Below, in pieces: positions 26,669 to 43,677 of a DNA stretch of 64,000 nt. The DNA is from Escherichia phage SP22: the sequence record LC519489.1; one strand, written 5' to 3'. The position numbers were made by a program, and so were the translations under genes. The notes beneath the pieces were generated by a model that saw nothing but the letters and a program-made list of their open reading frames with translations, made no database searches and was not told the origin of the DNA. The stretch's first letter is position 1; every line of letters begins with the position of its first letter.

Positions 26669-26815
26669 ATTATCTTTGTAGATAAGTTATTAAGCTTACC
26701 TGTGAGTATGCGACCACAAAGGGTGAAATGGTAAATTCTAGATTTAAACCCAACAATGCACATCGCTACAGACCTTAAGCAAGTCTGGGTAGCTTATCTA
26801 CAAAGATAATTTAAT

Positions 26816-26891
26816 GGAAGTGTAGCAGAATGGTGATGCGGCAGACTTTTAATCTGACAGGCGATGGGTTCGAATCCCTCCACTTCTACCA
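26816..26891 (+). tRNA. tRNA-Lys (anticodon TTT)
   Basis: acceptor ggaagtg/cacttct, anticodon loop cttttaa, T-loop ttcgaat, CCA. Confidence 0.65.
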
Positions 26892-26895
26892 ATAT

Positions 26896-26972
26896 GGTTC
26901 AGTCGCAGATAAGGTAATGCAGGGGTTTCATAAGCCCTATGAATGTGGGTTCGATTCCCATCTGAACCTCCA
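26896..26972 (+). tRNA. tRNA with anticodon CAT (elongator Met or Ile-lysidine type)
   Basis: acceptor ggttcag/ctgaacc, anticodon stem ggggt/gccct loop ttcataa, T-loop ttcgatt, CCA. Confidence 0.6.
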
Positions 26973-26973
26973 A

Positions 26974-27049
26974 GCTGGTATAGTTAAGAAGGTTATAACA
27001 CTCCCCTGATAAGGGAACATCGGTGGTTCGATTCCACCTACCAGTACCA
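26974..27049 (+). tRNA. tRNA-Ile (anticodon GAT)
   Basis: acceptor gctggta/taccagt, anticodon loop ctgataa, T-arm ggtgg-ttcgatt-ccacc, CCA. Confidence 0.65.
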
Positions 27050-27064
27050 ATTTCAATAAAGTTG

Positions 27065-27093
27065 TTGACATTGAGATGTGACTACTTTATAGT
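27065..27093 (+). promoter_or_regulatory. sigma70-like promoter (ttgaca 27065-27070, 17 bp, tatagt 27088-27093)
   Basis: consensus hexamers with 17-bp spacer. Confidence 0.55.
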
Positions 27094-27099
27094 AACTGA

Positions 27100-27387
27100 A
27101 AATGATTCAGCATATGTATAATTCAAACACCAATACATGAGCGTTAGACGTAACACAATGTGGGGAAATTTGTTGTACATATTCTGAATAGTTTTCGTTG
27201 CGTAGCGTCTATTTTGCAAATTTAAAATAAATGCAAACGACAATGTTTTTCTGGCAGTAGCTTGATAGGCTAAACACCAGTGAGGTCTTCCAATCCCTCA
27301 TCAAAGAATTTGGCGTACTCGCCCACGGTATGATTAATAAGGTGGGCATCTTTAAGGGCTTTCTAAGAGAGTCTTTAAAGATAATTA
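27100..27387 (+). ncRNA. candidate non-coding transcript downstream of the promoter and upstream of the atypical tRNA-like gene
   Basis: about 290 nt with no ORF of 60 aa or more in any frame, inside the tRNA cluster. Confidence 0.25.
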
Positions 27388-27469
27388 CGGGGCGTATCTC
27401 AGCGGTCTTCTAAACCGCCGTTAACCGAGTAAGTGGAGTATGCGGGTTCGAGTCCTGCCGCCTCGACCA
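27388..27469 (+). tRNA. atypical tRNA-like gene: canonical T-arm and acceptor with CCA, anticodon-like hairpin gcggt-cTTCTaa-accgc (TCT, Arg-type), no canonical D-arm, 23-nt extra region
   Basis: acceptor cggggcg/cgcctcg, T-arm gcggg-ttcgagt-cctgc; only 7 nt between acceptor and hairpin. Confidence 0.4.
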
Positions 27470-27483
27470 ATTTTGGAGAAATC

Positions 27484-27831
27484 ATGAAAACTTGTATTAG
27501 GTGCAAACTTAGCAAGGATGAAAATGATTTCTACATGAAAGATGGTAAGAGAACTCATTCATACTGTAAAAAGTGTGTTAATGAGCAAACCATAGAAAGA
27601 CAAAGAGCACTTAAACTTTCAGCTATTGAGTACAAAGGTGGGGTTTGTCATGATTGTGGTAAAAGGTATCATCCAGCAGTGTATGACTTCCATCATTTGA
27701 ATCCTTCAGAGAAAGATTTTAACATTGGTCATAGAAAAAGTCTGAAGTTCTCTCAAGAACTAAAAGATGAACTTGACAAATGTGTTTTGCTATGTTCAAA
27801 TTGCCATAGGGTAAGACATGCAAAGTATTAG
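27484..27831 (+). CDS. HNH homing endonuclease (paralog of 29214-29627)
   Basis: CxxC...CHDCG...HHLNP...CSNCHRVRH motifs; start set at ATG after SD ggag (track ORF 27433 overlaps the tRNA-like gene). Confidence 0.7.
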   Translation: MKTCIRCKLSKDENDFYMKDGKRTHSYCKKCVNEQTIERQRALKLSAIEYKGGVCHDCGKRYHPAVYDFHHLNPSEKDFNIGHRKSLKFSQELKDELDKCVLLCSNCHRVRHAKY

Positions 27832-27968
27832 TTAGCAGATTGCTTAGACGACCTTATCGGGTCTCCGTGTAAGGAGGTGGTCTGTATCTCATGTTTTCCA
27901 GAACATGTAAATAATCTGAGAAGGGGCTTTACAGTGTTGCGAAAATACGGTAAGCTTCGAATTACAAT

Positions 27969-28051
27969 ATGGGACGATGTTAAGACTCTAAGGCATGAGC
28001 AACGGCCTCCAAAACCGTTTCAAAGGGGTTCAACTCCTCCGTCCCATGCCA
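27969..28051 (+). tRNA. non-canonical tRNA-like element or pseudo-tRNA
   Basis: perfect acceptor atgggac/gtcccat-g-cca and T-loop ttcaact, but anticodon hairpin aacgg-cctccaaaa-ccgtt has a 9-nt loop and there is an about 8-nt insertion before the D-stem. Confidence 0.3.
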
Positions 28052-28064
28052 AAGTCTTATTAGG

Positions 28065-28154
28065 GGTAGGTAGCGGCTAATGGCAGCCAAACAGTCTTGA
28101 AAACTGTTGCCACTGTAGAGATACGGTGAGGGTTCGACTCCTTTACTTACCGCC
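28065..28154 (+). tRNA. tRNA-Ser (anticodon TGA), class II
   Basis: acceptor ggtaggt/acttacc, anticodon stem acagt/actgt loop cttgaaa, long variable arm, T-loop ttcgact. Confidence 0.65.
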
Positions 28155-28422
28155 TAATAAGATTTATACCGTCCATGCTTGCTCGCATTTTCGGTTTATC
28201 CTCGTGTATTGGTTGTACACACTGATAAAGCACCTAGTAGGTGTCACGGAGAAGAGATAATATCAAGCTCTCCAAAGGTTCTAGTCACCGGATTAAACAA
28301 GACTATGCAAAGACCAAATTAGGTCTTTTTAGAGGGCTTCTAAGGTTATTACAGCTTGTTGTGGAACCTTGTTGCTTAGGTTCTTAGAAGTTCTCTAAAA
28401 AGATTTAATGGGAGATTGACAC

Positions 28423-28875
28423 ATGGCACGTAGCAGTTTGACTAAAGATATTCTTGAACCTTTAGTAAAGGATTCAGTATCATTCAGAGAAGTACTTATT
28501 AAGCTTGGGAGAAAACCAGCAGGTGGTTCTCAGTCACATCTAAAGCGTGTTATAGAGAAGTTTGAAATAGACACTTCTCATTTCCTCGGACAAAAGGCTG
28601 GTAAGGTTAAAACTGTACCAAAAAGAAAGCCTGAAGAAATACTAATTCTGCGTGAATCTGGTGAAAGAGCTAGGTCTTCACAACTAAGAAGAGCTTTAAT
28701 AGCCTCTGGTGTCGAATACAAATGCTCTAAATGTGGTCAGTTACCGTATTGGTTGGGTAACCCTCTAACTCTTGATGTTGACCACATTAACGAGAACTGG
28801 TTAGATGATAGAAAAGAGAATCTTCGGTTCTTGTGTCCAAATTGCCACAGTCAATTCTCAAGACATTTGATTTAA
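28423..28875 (+). CDS. HNH homing endonuclease
   Basis: YKCSKCG...DHINENWLDDRKENLRFLCPNCH motif; SD gggag. Confidence 0.65.
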   Translation: MARSSLTKDILEPLVKDSVSFREVLIKLGRKPAGGSQSHLKRVIEKFEIDTSHFLGQKAGKVKTVPKRKPEEILILRESGERARSSQLRRALIASGVEYKCSKCGQLPYWLGNPLTLDVDHINENWLDDRKENLRFLCPNCHSQFSRHLI

Positions 28876-28876
28876 T

Positions 28877-28953
28877 GCACCTATAGCCCAACTGGTAGAG
28901 GCAGCAGACTTAGAATCTGCTCAGTGTGAGTTCGAATCTCTCTAGGTGTACCA
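28877..28953 (+). tRNA. tRNA with anticodon TAG (Leu-type anticodon) but short variable arm
   Basis: acceptor gcaccta/taggtgt-a-cca, anticodon stem gcaga/tctgc loop cttagaa, T-loop ttcgaat. Confidence 0.55.
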
Positions 28954-28960
28954 AATTAAT

Positions 28961-29036
28961 GCAGGTGTAGCAAAATGGTTATGCGGCTGACTCTTAATCA
29001 GTAAGACGATGGGTTCAATTCCCTCCACCTGTACCA
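28961..29036 (+). tRNA. tRNA-Lys (anticodon CTT), paralog of the TTT tRNA
   Basis: acceptor gcaggtg/cacctgt, anticodon loop ctcttaa, T-loop ttcaatt, CCA. Confidence 0.6.
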
Positions 29037-29042
29037 AACATT

Positions 29043-29118
29043 GGGGATGTAGTTTACATGGTTAAAACATAAGTTTTGCAAACTTAAGTACAGGGTTCAA
29101 TTCCCTGCTTCTCCACCA
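29043..29118 (+). tRNA. tRNA-Ala (anticodon TGC)
   Basis: anticodon stem taagt/actta loop tttgcaa, T-arm caggg-ttcaatt-ccctg, CCA. Confidence 0.6.
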
Positions 29119-29124
29119 ATTAGT

Positions 29125-29199
29125 GCATCCATAGTTTAAACGGGAAAATTACAGTCTTCCAAACTGAGGTTGAGGGTTCGATTCCCTCTGGATGCTCCA
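29125..29199 (+). tRNA. tRNA-Gly (anticodon TCC)
   Basis: acceptor gcatcca/tggatgc, anticodon loop cttccaa, T-arm gaggg-ttcgatt-ccctc, CCA. Confidence 0.65.
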
Positions 29200-29213
29200 A
29201 ATTAAGGTGTGAT

Positions 29214-29627
29214 ATGAAAATATGTAGTACTTGCAGAATACCAAAAGATGAAAGCTTATTCCATAAGAATAAGAACAAGAAAGATGGTCTTCAAAGTCAA
29301 TGCAAAGACTGTGCAAGACTTCGTGATGCAAAGAGTTATCAAGCAAATGATAAAAGGAAAGAGGCTATCAAAAGCACTCGTAACTTCAAGAGGGAGTATA
29401 ATAAAACTCTAGCTAGAAGGTACAAAGCTTTATGCAAATGTCATATATGTGGTGAGAAAGAACCAGCTGCACTGGATTTACACCATACAGACCCTTCCCA
29501 GAAAGATTTGAATCCTGCATCACTTTATTCATACTCCACAAAAAGATTAAAAGATGAAATCAGAAAGTGTATCGTCTTGTGTGCTAACTGTCACAGAAAA
29601 GTACACGCTGGTATCATACAAGTTTAA
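29214..29627 (+). CDS. HNH homing endonuclease (paralog of 27484-27831)
   Basis: CSTCR...CKDC...CHICG...HHTDPS...CANCHRKVH. Confidence 0.7.
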   Translation: MKICSTCRIPKDESLFHKNKNKKDGLQSQCKDCARLRDAKSYQANDKRKEAIKSTRNFKREYNKTLARRYKALCKCHICGEKEPAALDLHHTDPSQKDLNPASLYSYSTKRLKDEIRKCIVLCANCHRKVHAGIIQV

Positions 29628-29628
29628 T

Positions 29629-29705
29629 GCTGCTTTCGTATAATTGGCTATTACACATCCCTTGTAAGGATGGAAATGCAGGTTCGAGTCCTGTGAGCAG
29701 CACCA
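29629..29705 (+). tRNA. tRNA-Thr (anticodon TGT)
   Basis: acceptor gctgctt/gagcagc, anticodon stem catcc/ggatg loop cttgtaa, T-loop ttcgagt, CCA. Confidence 0.7.
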
Positions 29706-29801
29706 ATTTAGAGGTCAAGTGAAAGACCGCTTTGAGTCAACTGAAGACCGTAACAAATCCCACGGAGTTGAGTTAGCGGCACAACTTCAGACCTCTTTCA
29801 T
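29706..29801 (+). ncRNA. structured intergenic element with nested inverted repeats between tRNA-Thr and tRNA-Val
   Basis: gaggtc...gacctc, ctgaag...cttcag and ccgt...acgg inverted repeats; contains the gaagaccgt motif. Confidence 0.3.
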
Positions 29802-29876
29802 ACTCGCTTAGTTTATATGGTAAAACATCACCCTTACAAGATGAAGAAAAAGGTTCAAGTCCTTTAGTGAGTACCA
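29802..29876 (+). tRNA. tRNA-Val (anticodon TAC)
   Basis: acceptor actcgct/agtgagt, D-stem gttt/aaac, anticodon loop cttacaa, T-arm aaagg-ttcaagt-ccttt, CCA. Confidence 0.6.
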
Positions 29877-29877
29877 T

Positions 29878-29955
29878 GTTCCAGTATCCCAATTGGCAGA
29901 GGATGCAAGCTCAAACCTTGTACTAGTGACGGTTCGAATCCGTCTTGGAACACCA
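29878..29955 (+). tRNA. tRNA with anticodon CAA (Leu-type anticodon), short variable arm
   Basis: acceptor gttccag/ttggaac, anticodon stem gcaag/cttgt loop ctcaaac, T-arm gacgg-ttcgaat-ccgtc, CCA. Confidence 0.55.
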
Positions 29956-29960
29956 ATTTT

Positions 29961-30036
29961 GCAGGATTAGTTCAAATGGATAGAGCAACAGTCTACGAAG
30001 CTGTTAATAGGGGTTCGAATCCCTTATCCTGCGCCA
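29961..30036 (+). tRNA. tRNA-Arg (anticodon ACG)
   Basis: perfect acceptor gcaggat/atcctgc, D-stem gttc/gagc, anticodon stem acagt/gctgt loop ctacgaa, T-loop ttcgaat, CCA. Confidence 0.75.
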
Positions 30037-30055
30037 ATTTAAAGAGGCTATTTAG

Positions 30056-30613
30056 ATGAGATATTTGAAGTATGCTTCATGGATTTTCTTAGCTTTGTTA
30101 GAACCATTTGCAGCAATCTTAGCAGTTATCTTAGCACCTTTCGTAGTCCCATTCTACAGTGAGAAGAAAGGACACTTACCTTTCGGCTTCAGATGGATGG
30201 AGACATATGACAACCCAATTGATGGTGATAAAGGGCATGTCGAACGATGGGCTAAGATTAGAAAGATTGGCAAGCTTGGTGTCTATATGCAGAGAGTCGG
30301 TTGGCTCTGGAGAAACAAAGCTTATAACTTCTCTTACCATGTGTTAGGAAGAGATGTAAAAGATGTTACTAAGTGGAAAGGCAATATCAACGTAAGTTCT
30401 AACCCTGAAGATAATCAGACAGGTTATCTCCTAATGTGGAACAGCAATGCTTGGGGATTATTCGCTTTTATCCCATCAATTAAAGTCTTTGGTAAACAAT
30501 TTTACTGGAGAATTTATATTGGGTGGAAGCTAAAAAGTGTTGTCCCAGAAGAAAGAGCATTCTCAAGGGAAAGAGTTATGTTGGCATTCTTTATTCATCC
30601 ACTAAGAAAGTAA
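30056..30613 (+). CDS. hypothetical Trp-rich membrane protein encoded inside the tRNA cluster
   Basis: N-terminal hydrophobic segment WIFLALLEPFAAILAVILAPFVVPF. Confidence 0.45.
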   Translation: MRYLKYASWIFLALLEPFAAILAVILAPFVVPFYSEKKGHLPFGFRWMETYDNPIDGDKGHVERWAKIRKIGKLGVYMQRVGWLWRNKAYNFSYHVLGRDVKDVTKWKGNINVSSNPEDNQTGYLLMWNSNAWGLFAFIPSIKVFGKQFYWRIYIGWKLKSVVPEERAFSRERVMLAFFIHPLRK

Positions 30614-30621
30614 AGATTTAA

Positions 30622-30697
30622 AGGGGATTAGTTTACAAGGTTAAAACCTCGGTCTTTGAAATCGAAGAAGTTGGTTCAATTCCAACATCCCCCGCCA
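30622..30697 (+). tRNA. tRNA-Gln (anticodon TTG)
   Basis: anticodon stem tcggt/atcga loop ctttgaa, D-stem gttt/aaac, T-arm gttgg-ttcaatt-ccaac, CCA; A1:C72 unpaired. Confidence 0.6.
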
Positions 30698-30699
30698 AT

Positions 30700-30778
30700 G
30701 CTCCATTACTCCAATTGGCAGAGAGGCCAGACTTAAAATCTGTGTTATGTATCGGTTCGAATCCGATATGGAGTACCA
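30700..30778 (+). tRNA. tRNA with anticodon TAA (Leu-type anticodon), short variable arm
   Basis: acceptor gctccat/atggagt, anticodon loop cttaaaa, T-arm atcgg-ttcgaat-ccgat, CCA. Confidence 0.55.
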
Positions 30779-30783
30779 AATTT

Positions 30784-30859
30784 AGCGGTATAGCATAACT
30801 GGCAATGCAGCAGTCTCTGAAGCTGTCTTATTAAGGTTCAAATCCTTATGCCGCTGCCA
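30784..30859 (+). tRNA. tRNA with anticodon CTG (Gln-type)
   Basis: acceptor agcggta/tgccgct, D-stem gcat/atgc, anticodon loop ctctgaa, T-arm taagg-ttcaaat-cctta, CCA. Confidence 0.55.
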
Positions 30860-30890
30860 CTTCTAAGGGTTCTTACGAGAGTCCTTAAAT

Positions 30891-30966
30891 GTGGCCTTAT
30901 CATAAATGGTAATGACCCATGCTGTGAACATGGTCTATACGGGTTCAAATCCCGTAGGTCACCCCA
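30891..30966 (+). tRNA. tRNA-His (anticodon GTG)
   Basis: acceptor gtggcct/aggtcac, anticodon stem ccatg/catgg loop ctgtgaa, T-loop ttcaaat, CCA. Confidence 0.7.
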
Positions 30967-30971
30967 ATTTA

Positions 30972-31046
30972 TAGTCCAAGTAGCTTATATGGTTAAAGCG
31001 CGTGTCTGAAAAACATGAGAAGAGGGTTCAAATCCCACTGGACTAC
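30972..31046 (+). tRNA. tRNA-Phe (anticodon GAA); 3' CCA not fully encoded
   Basis: acceptor tagtcca/tggacta, anticodon stem cgtgt/acatg loop ctgaaaa, T-loop ttcaaat. Confidence 0.55.
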
Positions 31047-31064
31047 CAATTTCAAAGGTGCTTA

Positions 31065-31799
31065 ATGAAAGAGATGACAGAACAAGGTAAGGAGATTTTT
31101 AATCTCTTAAAAACCGGTAAAGGGTTTTCTAATCCCCTTATTACTGGTGCAGCAGTTCTCGGTGGAACCGTAGCTGCCTCTACATCACTTGTAAGCTCTA
31201 TTAGCTCTGTAACAGACCCTACAATAAAAGATAAGCTTGTTGCTGCTGGACTTACAACAGTCCTGCTTAACAGCTTTACAACGAGTCTGACAAGCACTAC
31301 ATCAACTACCAAAACACTGACAGATTACGGTCAAAAATCTATTGATGAGTTTTCATCACGTATGCAGGTAGCAAAAGGCTATTCTAATGTTATGGGTGCA
31401 GCAGGAGAGCAGGTTGGTTGTACACCATTTAGTGGTATTATGGGTGTTGCTACAGAGTATGGTCAAAAAGCTATTGACACGATTAACAGTGCACTAGATG
31501 GTGTTAATGATGTATTAAGTGACTTACAAGATGCTATTGACAAAGGTCTTGATACTATTTCTGATTTAGCTAACCAAGCTGTTAGTAAGATTAATGAAGG
31601 TATTTCGAAGATTACAGCTTATGCAGATGAAGTTGTGCAGATGATTGAAGAAGAAGCTGCTCTTATTGCAGAGTACCTTAAAACGAATATCAATGGGTTC
31701 TTAGCAGGTATCTTACCAGACTGGTTTGATGATGCTTGTAAAACTGGTGTAATTGATACTATTGCAACACCAGAAATGAAGAACGCATTACAGAAATAA
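31065..31799 (+). CDS. hypothetical Ser/Thr/Ala-rich protein (start set at internal ATG after the tRNA; track ORF 31002 overlaps tRNA-Phe)
   Basis: ORF track with start adjusted. Confidence 0.45.
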   Translation: MKEMTEQGKEIFNLLKTGKGFSNPLITGAAVLGGTVAASTSLVSSISSVTDPTIKDKLVAAGLTTVLLNSFTTSLTSTTSTTKTLTDYGQKSIDEFSSRMQVAKGYSNVMGAAGEQVGCTPFSGIMGVATEYGQKAIDTINSALDGVNDVLSDLQDAIDKGLDTISDLANQAVSKINEGISKITAYADEVVQMIEEEAALIAEYLKTNINGFLAGILPDWFDDACKTGVIDTIATPEMKNALQK

Positions 31800-31800
31800 T

Positions 31801-31893
31801 GGAAGATTAACCCTAAAAGGTAAGGGAGCAGTTTGCTAAACTGCCAGTAGCTGAGAAATCGGTGTACCAGTTCAAGTCTGGTATCTTCCTCCA
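31801..31893 (+). tRNA. tRNA-Ser (anticodon GCT), class II
   Basis: perfect acceptor ggaagat/atcttcc, anticodon stem gcagt/actgc loop ttgctaa, long variable arm, T-arm accag-ttcaagt-ctggt, CCA. Confidence 0.75.
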
Positions 31894-31897
31894 ATTT

Positions 31898-31973
31898 GAA
31901 TCCGTGACAGAAATGGTTATGTGCCTGTCTGCAAAACAGGTTTATAAGGGTTCGAGTCCCTTCGGATTCTCCA
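31898..31973 (+). tRNA. tRNA-Cys (anticodon GCA)
   Basis: perfect acceptor gaatccg/cggattc, anticodon stem cctgt/acagg loop ctgcaaa, T-arm aaggg-ttcgagt-ccctt, CCA. Confidence 0.75.
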
Positions 31974-40177: not shown

Positions 40178-40575
40178 GACTCTTAAACAGACACAGCTTT
40201 GTAGTAAAGCGCAAAGCCTCTGAAGATGGTTATTACAATGATGATGGTGATTGGGTAGCTTCACAAGATATTGTAGAGGTTAACTGTAAAGGTAATATCC
40301 AGCCATATATCAAAGGTTCTGTAAAGAATGGTACACAGATTGCTTTACCGGAAGGTATCAGACTTACCGATACAAGAATCCTGTATACTACATATAAACT
40401 TAGAACTTCAGATGATGTAGAGTGGAATGAGTCTGACATTGTTATGATTGATGGTCATGAGTATGAAGTATTTATGACTATGGATTGGTCACAGCAATTA
40501 GCCCATACGTCCCATTATGAATATATCATTATTAGAAGGGATAAAATGAATGCAGTTAGAAACAGCAGAACTTGA
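40174..40575 (+). CDS. putative head-tail joining protein
   Basis: position, overlapping start. Confidence 0.3.
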   Translation: MRLLNRHSFVVKRKASEDGYYNDDGDWVASQDIVEVNCKGNIQPYIKGSVKNGTQIALPEGIRLTDTRILYTTYKLRTSDDVEWNESDIVMIDGHEYEVFMTMDWSQQLAHTSHYEYIIIRRDKMNAVRNSRT

Positions 40576-41149
40576 AAAAGGTCTAGTTAGAACCTTAGTG
40601 GATGTTATTGGTCACAGACTAGCTCGTGATAAAAATAATAGACCAAATGTAATTAGAGCTTACCCTTCTGATAACTCAAATGACAAAGGTTTAAAACCTG
40701 ACCAGCCATTTATTACCGTATATTGTCAAGATGCTGCAACACCTTATGGTTGGGTTCTTGATAAGTTTGTTGAGGATGATGTAGTTTGCTATAGAATTGC
40801 TTTTCAAATTCCAGTATTAATTACGGTAAATGGTAAAGGTGCTCACAGTATTATGCTTGAGCTTAAACAACGATTAGAGATGAGTTCAGTCAGAGATTTA
40901 ATTCTTGAAGAGACAGGAGCTACAGTTTTAGACACTGGAGCTATCCCAAATGACTACACTTATCTTAATACAGATTTCGAAAATTCTGCACCTCTTGTTG
41001 TAACTCTTGTAAAAAATTCAGTCCTGAAAGATGAACGTGGAAGTATTATTGAGCGTGTCATTGTTGATGGTGAATTAGTTTACGAAGAAGGACAAGAGCC
41101 ACCAGAATATACTATCCATCTAGATGTAGACTCCAAAGGGGTAAAATAA
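40550..41149 (+). CDS. putative tail completion/terminator protein
   Basis: position. Confidence 0.3.
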   Translation: MQLETAELEKGLVRTLVDVIGHRLARDKNNRPNVIRAYPSDNSNDKGLKPDQPFITVYCQDAATPYGWVLDKFVEDDVVCYRIAFQIPVLITVNGKGAHSIMLELKQRLEMSSVRDLILEETGATVLDTGAIPNDYTYLNTDFENSAPLVVTLVKNSVLKDERGSIIERVIVDGELVYEEGQEPPEYTIHLDVDSKGVK

Positions 41150-42502
41150 ATGTGGAATCCAATTGTTAATGTAGATATTACATTGAACACCGCAGGAACT
41201 ACAAGAGAAGGTTTTGGGCTGCCACTATTTTTAGCTTCAACAGATAACTTTGAAGAAAGAGTCCGTGGTTACACTTCCTTAACTGAAGTTGCTGAAGATT
41301 TCGATGAAAATTCTGCTGCATATAAGGCTGCTAAACAACTTTGGAGTCAGACTCCTAAAGTAACTCAGCTTTATATTGGTAGACGTGCTATGCAGTACAC
41401 TGTATCAATTCCTGATGAGGTTACTGAGAGCACCGATTATTCTTTAACTGTAGCTGTGGGCGGTGGAGTTTCTCAGCCATTCCAGTATACAGCACAGACA
41501 TCAGATACCGCTGAGAAGGTGTTGCAGCAGCTTAAAACACAAATTGAAGCAGAACCTTCTGTAAAAGACCTTGTTACTGTCAATGTAACTGGTTCTGGTG
41601 GTTCAGCAACAATGGTAATCACCAAAGCTGGTGTCAACGACTTCGTGAAGGTTACTACTACAGCACAAACAGTGTCAATTGCAAGTACAACTGCTGACAC
41701 AGCATCGACTGCTCTGGCAGCTATTGAAGCGTATTCAACTGACTGGTATTTCATTGCAGCAGAAGACAGAACTCAACAGTTTGTCTTAGCAATGGCTTCT
41801 GAGATTCAAGCTCGTAAGAAGATTTTCTTTACAGCTAACTCCGATGTAGCAGCACTGCAAGGTACAGAATTAGCCAGTGCAAATGATGTTCCAGCACAAC
41901 TTGCTAAGAATAAGTACACTCGCACAGTTTGCTTGTGGCATCACACAGCAGCAGAAGACTATCCAGAAATGGCATACATCGCTTATGGTGCTCCATATGA
42001 TGCAGGTTCAATTGCTTGGGGTAACGCACAGCTAACTGGCGTAGCTGCTTCTCTACAGCCATCTAATCAGAGACCTCTGACAAGTATTCAGAAGTCAGCT
42101 TTAGATGCACGTCACTGTAACTTTATTGACCTTGATGGTGGTGTTCCAGTGGTTCGTAGAGGGATTACTTCTGGTGGGGAATGGATTGATATCATCCGTG
42201 GTGTTGACTGGTTAGAATCAGACCTGAAAACTTCTCTGAGAGACTTGCTAATTAACCAGAAGGGTGGTAAGATTACTTATGATGATACTGGTATTACCCG
42301 TATTCGTCAAGTCATTGAAACCTCTCTGCAAAGAGCAGTCAACAGAAACTTCCTGTCATCTTACACAGTTAATGTTCCTAAAGCCTCTCAAGTTGCTTTG
42401 GCAGACAAGAAAGCTCGTATCCTGAAAGATGTTACCTTCGCAGGTATCTTAGCAGGGGCTATCTTGGATGTTGACTTGAAAGGTACAGTGGCTTACGAAT
42501 AA
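41150..42502 (+). CDS. putative tail sheath protein
   Basis: 450 aa immediately upstream of a 148-aa tube-size ORF, chaperone pair and tape measure gene. Confidence 0.45.
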   Translation: MWNPIVNVDITLNTAGTTREGFGLPLFLASTDNFEERVRGYTSLTEVAEDFDENSAAYKAAKQLWSQTPKVTQLYIGRRAMQYTVSIPDEVTESTDYSLTVAVGGGVSQPFQYTAQTSDTAEKVLQQLKTQIEAEPSVKDLVTVNVTGSGGSATMVITKAGVNDFVKVTTTAQTVSIASTTADTASTALAAIEAYSTDWYFIAAEDRTQQFVLAMASEIQARKKIFFTANSDVAALQGTELASANDVPAQLAKNKYTRTVCLWHHTAAEDYPEMAYIAYGAPYDAGSIAWGNAQLTGVAASLQPSNQRPLTSIQKSALDARHCNFIDLDGGVPVVRRGITSGGEWIDIIRGVDWLESDLKTSLRDLLINQKGGKITYDDTGITRIRQVIETSLQRAVNRNFLSSYTVNVPKASQVALADKKARILKDVTFAGILAGAILDVDLKGTVAYE

Positions 42503-42964: not shown

Positions 42965-42975
42965 TAAATCCTATA

Positions 42976-43008
42976 AGGGGGAGACTTTAAAAGGTCTTCC
43001 CCTTTTTT
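42976..43008 (+). terminator. rho-independent terminator after tube gene
   Basis: gggggagac...gtcttcccc + tttttt. Confidence 0.6.
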
Positions 43009-43036
43009 GTTTCTTTTAAAGTATTAAGGAATCACA

Positions 43037-43435
43037 ATGAAAACAGAATCTAGAGTAATTAATGGTAAGAAAGTAAATATCGTTCTGCTTGGGGCAAGAG
43101 ATGGTATTAAGATGTCTATGAAGTTGGGTAAAATTGTTGTTCCAACATTTGCACAGATGCTGTCAAGCCTGACTGATAAAGATAAGAAAGAAGCTCCAAT
43201 GGTTCCATTTAAAGAACTTGTTGAAGCTTGTTTTGACAGAATTGAAGAAATTAACCTTGAAGAAATGGCTACCATGTTATTTCAAGGGGCAACTGTTGAT
43301 GACTTCCCACTTAATATTGATACATACTTCCAAGCAAACTACGGTGAATTTATTGATTACTTAGCATTTGCGCTGGAGGCAAACTTCGGAAGTTTTTTCG
43401 AAGCAAGCATTTTCAAAAGCCTAACTTCTCAGTAA
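43037..43435 (+). CDS. tail assembly chaperone (G-like)
   Basis: position between tube and tape-measure genes; slippery site near 3' end. Confidence 0.5.
   Translation: MKTESRVINGKKVNIVLLGARDGIKMSMKLGKIVVPTFAQMLSSLTDKDKKEAPMVPFKELVEACFDRIEEINLEEMATMLFQGATVDDFPLNIDTYFQANYGEFIDYLAFALEANFGSFFEASIFKSLTSQ
43393..43399 (+). other. candidate -1 programmed ribosomal frameshift site T_TTT_TTC
   Basis: heptamer in codon register X_XXY_YYZ 13 codons before the stop; the -1 frame is open from here into ORF 43438-43677. Confidence 0.5.
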
Positions 43436-43437
43436 AC

Positions 43438-43676
43438 ATGGGTAACACTCTACAGACACCACTAACTGATGCTGCTGTAGAGGCAACCTATGAAGAAGCA
43501 GACGAGATGAAATTTGTGCTTGCTATTTATGGTATGGAAGGGTGTAAAGAAACACTTGACCAACTCTTTGCTATGACATTCTCTGATTTATTATCATTGA
43601 GACAATTTCTTGAAATTCAGAGGTCGTATAAAGAGGAAATTGCTTACAACGAACTTAGAAGAGCAGGAAAAATGTA

Positions 43677-43677
<1 letters not shown>
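43438..43677 (+). CDS. tail assembly chaperone C-terminal extension ORF (GT-like, probably expressed by frameshift fusion)
   Basis: in -1 frame relative to upstream chaperone, directly abutting the tape measure gene. Confidence 0.45.

Follow-up and report, generated by a model that had tools for sequence, protein, structure and literature searches.

In phage lambda, the binding partner of G is the tape measure protein and that of T is the tube protein (PMC5009743). The E/E+E' pair of phage P2 has a T6G heptamer, an E' frame without a ribosome-binding site and no downstream hairpin (PMC3091744, PMC3931495). In the phage group studied here, a tail-chaperone frameshift is stated in the genome announcements of Moogle and Mijalis (PMC4319497, PMC5543628). 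We analyzed the corresponding locus of Escherichia phage SP22, a Felix O1-like myovirus of the genus Felixounavirus, for which a sequence-only reading had proposed a -1 programmed frameshift at T_TTT_TTC joining two tail-chaperone open reading frames (ORFs), named ORF1 and ORF2 here. The DNA under study, called the window below, is the whole stretch of 64,000 nucleotides (nt) from record LC519489.1, and all positions refer to it unless another locus is named. The feature is the already known tail-chaperone frameshift, already annotated in this phage group, and the two chaperone frames are very probably joined by programmed -1 frameshifting of ribosomes, the arrangement known from lambda G/GT (P2 E/E+E').

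In the zero frame, position 43393 completes the ORF1 codon AGT and TTT TTC follow (AG-T TTT TTC), so that the heptamer at 43393-43399 stands in the X_XXY_YYZ register; it is the only in-register XXXYYYZ heptamer within ORF1. Counted back from the TAA of ORF1, its TTT is codon 13, the distance proposed earlier. From 43357 the -1 frame runs through ORF2 with no stop before the TAA at 43675-43677, and this TAA overlaps the tape measure ATG at 43677 (TAATG), which agrees with the earlier description of a -1 frame open into the next ORF, itself abutting the tape measure gene. The predicted GT-like fusion, join(43037..43399,43399..43677), has 213 amino acids (aa) and 24.3 kDa, close to the approximately 210 aa first estimated. 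Its junction reads ..ANFGSFF/RSKHFQKPNFSVN/MGNT.., in which RSKHFQKPNFSVN corresponds to the 13 codons that lead up to the ORF2 ATG. The GluC peptide expected across the junction is ANFGSFFRSKHFQKPNFSVNMGNTLQTPLTDAAVE, and the tryptic fusion peptide predicted to span the ORF1 stop and the ORF2 ATG is HFQKPNFSVNMGNTLQTPLTDAAVEATYEEADEMK. A search for solved structures related to the fusion returned none.

The assignment of both ORFs as chaperones was borne out by profile searches. ORF1 matches PF21822 Phage_TAC_15 (E = 1.1e-19; 71.7 bits, with a gathering cut-off of 22), residues 9-124 aligning with positions 1-124 of the 127-position model, and phrog_1613 (2.6e-49). The PHROG family matched by ORF2 is annotated as tail assembly chaperone, and a Pfam search of ORF2 gave no match. 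The order of genes on the + strand, established with Pfam and PHROG, is tail terminator-like, sheath, tube-like, ORF1, ORF2 and tape measure, so that the chaperone pair is flanked by the tube gene and the tape measure gene as in the G/GT class (Xu, Hendrix & Duda 2004). This placement, the conserved heptamer and the joins deposited for relatives uphold the position as that of a G/GT-type frameshift.

The heptamer U_UU.U_UU.C belongs to the H_HH.U_UU.Y class, the most efficient in E. coli, and shifts there at >0.1% without stimulators (PMC4066793). In-register XXXYYYZ heptamers occur at a rate of 57 per 16,210 codons; for the window alone, the probability that the 26-codon overlap of the two frames holds one or more is then P = 0.088, and for the A6/T6 type it is P = 0.014. 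The heptamer in one genome alone is suggestive and only a mildly unlikely coincidence; as the chance level in a single genome is this modest, the decisive support comes from conservation.

All the relatives that we examined, comprising six Ounavirinae lineages and two Vequintavirinae phages, carry the heptamer in register within the part of ORF1 that the -1 frame overlaps. It is kept in Felixounavirus (ekra, Pr103Blw, Felix O1 and Meda), Suspvirus (mistaenkt), Mooglevirus (Moogle), Kolesnikvirus (phiEa21-4 and SE5), Yersinia phage P778, Hafnia phage SarahDanielle and Pectobacterium phage Wc4-1, and in the Vequintavirinae in Cronobacter phage CR8 (1848-1854 of L013) and Escherichia phage Av-05 (1473-1479 of L090). 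The last two, which are rV5-like, were retrieved by tblastn similarity with no motif used; their ORF1 homologues have 27-28% identity and carry T_TTT_TTC in register. In CR8, Av-05 and the IMG/VR loci L084-L088 the -1 frame runs for 116-130 codons and ends at a small hypothetical-protein ORF before the tape measure gene.

We also scanned IMG/VR with the peptide motif [LV]ExN[FY][GSK][SC]FF as seed. Because the seed contains FF, the scan tests codon choice and the openness of the frame, not retention of the peptide. T_TTT_TTY was present in all 76 loci recovered (71 with TTTTTTC and five with TTTTTTT), in which ORF1 identity ranges from 99% down to 23%, and the -1 frame after the slip site was open for 76-116 codons. 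The serine codon before the phenylalanines of the heptamer is AGT or TCT in these loci, never one ending in C, A or G; more generally the Ser/Cys codon 5' of the Phe pair has T as its last base throughout, and TTT is the first Phe codon without exception. This codon choice holds in contigs of 57-64% GC, where TTT makes up 20-40% of Phe codons, and against local codon usage the joint choice has a probability of about 1e-9.9 over 12 lineages. The 12 lineages are a conservative count, since the 70% clustering that defines the 12 groups over-merges; at 50% identity, single linkage joined all of the IMG/VR ORF1 sequences into one chained group, and this clustering was dropped. In 10 of 12 lineage representatives the end of the -1 frame falls between -14 and +6 nt from a long ORF. 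Loss of the heptamer from genomes that keep both ORFs, which the sequence-only reading had named as evidence against itself, was not found: the heptamer persists at 23-28% ORF1 identity and in DNA of 57-64% GC.

The same site stands out in nucleotide comparisons. In a seven-lineage alignment with only 19% invariant columns, the longest invariant run is AGTTTTTTCGA (43391-43401, 11 nt), and the next longest has 5 nt. When the 641-nt query was compared by blastn with Erwinia and Yersinia phages, alignment survived only at 43382-43422. A second invariant block, TTTTCAAAA (43410-43418), is shared by six of the seven lineages just 3' of the heptamer. Its zero frame has an in-register tetramer, U_UUC, and its -1 frame has the tetramer A_AAG; its invariance is probably due to the constraint of coding in both frames (IFK / HFQK). 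When the -1-frame domain of the Ounavirinae was compared by hhalign with that of the distant lineages, P was 0.0046 but the probability reached only 7.6%, and we have not used this result as evidence.

Table 1. Features of the tail-chaperone locus in the window
Feature	Position	Strand	Remarks
Tail terminator-like gene	40550-41149	+	
Sheath gene	41150-42502	+	phrog_205 tail sheath
Tail tube-like structural protein gene, 148 aa	42518-42964	+	PF11681, phrog_280; directly 3' of sheath
Intrinsic-terminator-like hairpin between tube and chaperone genes	42975-43004	+	13-pair stem, 6 GC pairs, then TTTTGTTT
Shine-Dalgarno-like AAGGA, 6 nt 5' of the ORF1 ATG	43026-43030	+	From the sequence itself
ORF1, G-like tail assembly chaperone, zero-frame product, 132 aa, 14.9 kDa	43037-43435	+	
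Overlap, zero and -1 frames both open, 26 codons	43357-43435	+	
Internal Shine-Dalgarno-like GGAGG, 13 nt 5' of heptamer	43375-43379	+	Candidate 5' stimulator
Slippery heptamer T_TTT_TTC	43393-43399	+	-1 shift site
-1 frame extension, 92 codons and stop	43399-43677	+	RSKHFQKPNFSVN, then ORF2
ORF2 as usually annotated, 79 aa	43438-43677	+	phrog_4963, 2.8e-55
Tape measure protein gene, 735 aa	43677-45884	+	PF20155 TMP_3, phrog_4036

An element resembling a Shine-Dalgarno (SD) sequence, GAGG or GGAGG, precedes the heptamer at a fixed spacing of 13 nt in most lineages (GGAGG in the window), a distance inside the 6-17 nt reported to be stimulatory (PMC4066793). The Glu codon at this place is GAG and not GAA in 24 of the 30 distinct codon contexts, compared with 12.2 expected (P = 6e-6), and it is GAG in 45 of 48 AT-rich loci though GAG is the minor Glu codon (~30%). 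Four lineages, Kolesnikvirus, Hafnia, Yersinia P778 and CR8, keep the heptamer but lack the element. From this distribution we regard GGAGG at 43375-43379 as a plausible but unproven auxiliary stimulator.

A different element was seen in a GC-rich environmental subgroup of IMG/VR (L065-L086, motif LEANFSSFF). There, a GC-rich stem of 9 base pairs, CCGCGAGCG/CGCTCGCGG, begins exactly 7 nt past TTTTTTC, the classic geometry of a stimulator of -1 programmed ribosomal frameshifting; its consensus energy is -14.2 kcal/mol with z of about -2.3 to -3.1, and its changes are one-sided G-U only, with no compensatory pairs. Tentatively, the family as a whole, comprising Ounavirinae, Vequintavirinae and many uncultivated phages, might share a two-part RNA signal of U_UUU_UUY and an in-ORF GAGG/GGAGG at 13 nt, in which the stimulator is swapped by lineage (a 5' SD-like element in most, a 3' hairpin in the GC-rich subgroup) while the heptamer is kept, and the peptide LExNFxSFF would be in part a by-product of selection on the RNA. 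We consider this somewhat doubtful; if true, it would document a dnaX-like 5' stimulator in phage tail-chaperone frameshifting.

The process that we propose for the window is as follows. Most ribosomes would terminate at the TAA at 43433-43435, where the zero frame ends, and release the 132-aa chaperone. A minority would pause with tRNA-Phe on UUU in the P site and on UUC in the A site; both tRNAs would slip one base back onto UUU UUU and resume at CGA (43399), and the shifted ribosomes would read the 92 further codons of the open -1 frame to its stop, producing the 213-aa fusion. Pairing of GGAGG with the anti-SD sequence of 16S ribosomal RNA may raise the shift rate, and a downstream RNA structure is presumably not involved in this lineage, where a conserved one is absent. 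By analogy with lambda gpG/gpGT, the shared N-terminal domain would coat the tape measure protein, the C-terminal domain read in the -1 frame would recruit the tube protein, for which the tube-like protein encoded directly 3' of the sheath gene is the likely binding partner, and neither chaperone product would stay in the virion.

Several points weigh against a ribosomal frameshift here. The literature on Ounavirinae phages gave no fusion band, junction peptide or reporter assay, nor any proteomic or genetic data bearing on a fixed low ratio of fusion to short product or on a need for both in tail assembly, and the paper on the structure of the Bas63 virion by cryo-electron microscopy mentions neither chaperones nor a frameshift. 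No notable structure is present downstream of the heptamer in the window (single-sequence fold, z = -1.64), and RNAalifold on seven lineages gave -0.83 kcal/mol with 0 compensatory pairs; the downstream stimulatory RNA structure that had been suggested as a check is consequently not conserved in this lineage. The candidate structure that we considered for this role consists of a trivial pairing of the U-run with downstream A residues, shows no covariation and was rejected. Relatives without the FF motif would escape the IMG/VR scan. In Felixounavirus the ORF2 ATG sits 2 nt past the ORF1 stop, and some independent reinitiation at ORF2 might conceivably occur there. Finally, the T6 run is also a possible site of RNA polymerase slippage, and the sequence alone cannot separate the two mechanisms.

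Slippage of this kind would give the same fusion protein by another route, RNA polymerase adding one U on T6 so that ORF1 and ORF2 are in frame in some messenger RNAs. The homopolymeric run fits such an event, as do the TTTTTTT of five of the 76 loci and the position of a weak hairpin at 43373-43389 just ahead of the run, in a terminator-like geometry. Escherichia phage CL1 (OK040806.1, 957-964 of L009) also counts in its favor: it has T7 where all other relatives have T6, and its record places ORF1 and ORF2 in one frame as a single 213-aa 'tape measure chaperone'. Either the T7 of CL1 is an error in sequencing the homopolymer, or it is a true variant and CL1 would make only the fusion; in both cases it means that the run is prone to insertions and deletions at some level, in sequencing or in replication. 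However, a run of six is short; documented bacterial transcriptional slippage sites usually have ~8-9 or more A or T residues. The hairpin at 43373-43389 is no better conserved than in shuffled sequences (pairing in 75% of cells versus 73.9% in shuffles, with 246 of 500 shuffles equal or higher) and was rejected as functional. The elements flanking the heptamer in this family, SD-like at 13 nt or a hairpin 7 nt 3' in the GC-rich subgroup, are of the ribosomal-frameshift type, and U_UUU_UUC is experimentally efficient as a ribosomal shifter (PMC4066793). We consider transcriptional slippage improbable.

A second possibility is that no recoding takes place, that ORF2 is an independent gene translated by reinitiation at ATG 43438 after the ORF1 stop, and that the heptamer is incidental. 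The arrangement of this ATG in the window and in most Felixounavirus genomes would allow it, and ORF1 and ORF2 are two separate genes in most GenBank records, including the Felix O1 RefSeq entry. T4-like phages are also reported, by Vladimirov et al. 2022, to make their tail assembly chaperone pair by a mechanism other than frameshifting. The start codon itself argues in the other direction. ATG 43438 has no SD-like sequence before it, the upstream sequence being agcctaacttctcagtaaac, and the start is absent or displaced in several relatives in which the -1-frame peptide is nevertheless conserved. The Kolesnikvirus phages phiEa21-4 and SE5 lack any ATG, GTG or TTG in the -1 frame over the 55 codons past the slip site, and the -1-frame peptide of phiEa21-4 still matches ORF2 of the window (tblastn, two pieces, 100% coverage, 9e-42). 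The sole ORF2 start-like codon of Yersinia phage P778 is TTG, and in most of the distant lineages the first start-like codon comes 35-65 codons past the slip site. Even in the near-identical Felixounavirus contig L026 (IMGVR_UViG_3300045988_004167; 98% ORF1 identity) ATA replaces the ORF2 ATG, and the first start-like codon in the -1 frame lies 36 codons past the slip site. These comparisons argue that ORF2 is not an independent gene across the chaperone family. An incidental heptamer also cannot explain synonymous positions that are invariant across lineages, and we hold this explanation to be quite improbable. The same invariance bears on the proposal that the heptamer reflects only a requirement for Ser-Phe-Phe and supports no meaningful rate of shifting. 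The odds of a heptamer within the window are not negligible, and the peptide motif LExNFxSFF is itself conserved; yet conservation of the peptide leaves the wobble positions free, and these are fixed in all 76 loci and in all GenBank relatives examined, GC-rich ones included. The -1 frame is moreover open over 76-130 codons in every case, against a +1 frame that is usually short. Coincidence of this kind is very improbable indeed, and a programmed -1 ribosomal frameshift is the explanation that we prefer.

A 1.7-kb query from the locus matched 296 phage records, most of them from Escherichia and Salmonella Felixounavirus at 95-99% identity. Chaperone sequences of Felixounavirus, at ~96-100% identity, also occur under the labels 'Campylobacter phage A132' (MG065664.1) and 'Staphylococcus hyicus' (WP_252560994.1), and these host labels suggest contamination or mislabelling. 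In the record of VpaE1_ev78 (LR597663.1) the product names (head closure, tail completion, sheath) are offset from the genes that lie beneath the matched region. The hairpin between the tube and chaperone genes belongs to the context of the locus and lies outside the frameshift signal; Meda, wV8 and AYO145A have a terminator annotated at the corresponding place, and the hairpin probably lowers the expression of the chaperone and tape measure genes relative to sheath and tube. Elsewhere in the window, a cluster of 25 tRNA genes (25634-31973) includes tRNA-Phe(GAA) at 30973-31048, tRNA-Ser(GCT), tRNA-Arg(ACG) and tRNA-Glu(TTC), which decode the slip-site codons AGT and UUU/UUC, the first -1-frame codon CGA and the next zero-frame codon GAA.

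The consequences are mainly for annotation. The window should carry a joined coding sequence (CDS) for the 213-aa fusion with the coordinates given above, and most Felixounavirus records that now show two genes, the Felix O1 RefSeq entry among them, need the same correction. It applies also to phiEa21-4 and Wc4-1, in which the -1-frame extension is unannotated (1569-1806 of L003 and 1923-2159 of L012, respectively) and an apparent gap of ~235 nt precedes the tape measure gene, and to CR8 and Av-05, which have a separate small ORF and no join. The SE5 record annotates just a 37-aa fragment of the extension. The invariance of the heptamer across the family makes it a clean positive control for frameshift predictors, and the enrichment of the SD-like element at a fixed spacing is a small, testable lead on the tuning of frameshift sites and on a possible two-part signal of SD-like element and heptamer across two phage subfamilies.

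The locus is a further example of the conserved tail-chaperone frameshift and offers nothing scientifically new in kind. The founding case, lambda gpG/gpGT, shares with the window the position before the tape measure gene and the production of two products with a common N-terminus; lambda differs in being a siphovirus, in its heptamer (G_GGA_AAG) and in showing no sequence similarity, and the domain roles in the window are assigned by analogy. Signals of the E. coli dnaX and IS911 type use a downstream hairpin as well, and none is conserved in the lineage of the window. The nearest experimentally proven analogue is P2 E/E+E', whose frameshift was reportedly shown by Christie et al. 2002. Both P2 and the window combine a contractile tail, a small gene pair between tube and tape measure and a heptamer of the T6 type close to where the first ORF ends. 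They differ in the last base of the heptamer, which is G in P2 (T_TTT_TTG) and C here, and in the size of the products (91 and 142 aa in P2, 132 and 213 aa in the window), and no sequence similarity was detected between them; the window has GGAGG 13 nt upstream of its heptamer, and PMC3091744 and PMC3931495 report no such element for P2. The most similar systems are those of the phage group itself. No deposited match was found to the 213-aa fusion sequence of the window, which has 96% identity to that of Salmonella phage Meda (MH586731, Meda_064), a member of the same genus with a two-piece CDS noted as 'Tape measure chaperone frameshift product', and about 70-74% identity to the fusions of Mooglevirus. 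Among the Citrobacter phages, Michonne and Mordin have a joined CDS for a 212-aa fusion, and Moogle has a two-piece CDS whose protein, YP_009145710.1, is identical to the fusion that we predicted from a slip at its heptamer. These join annotations are predictions, not experiments, and in Meda and Mooglevirus they use the same heptamer, the same register and the same junction (..SFF/R..) as the window.

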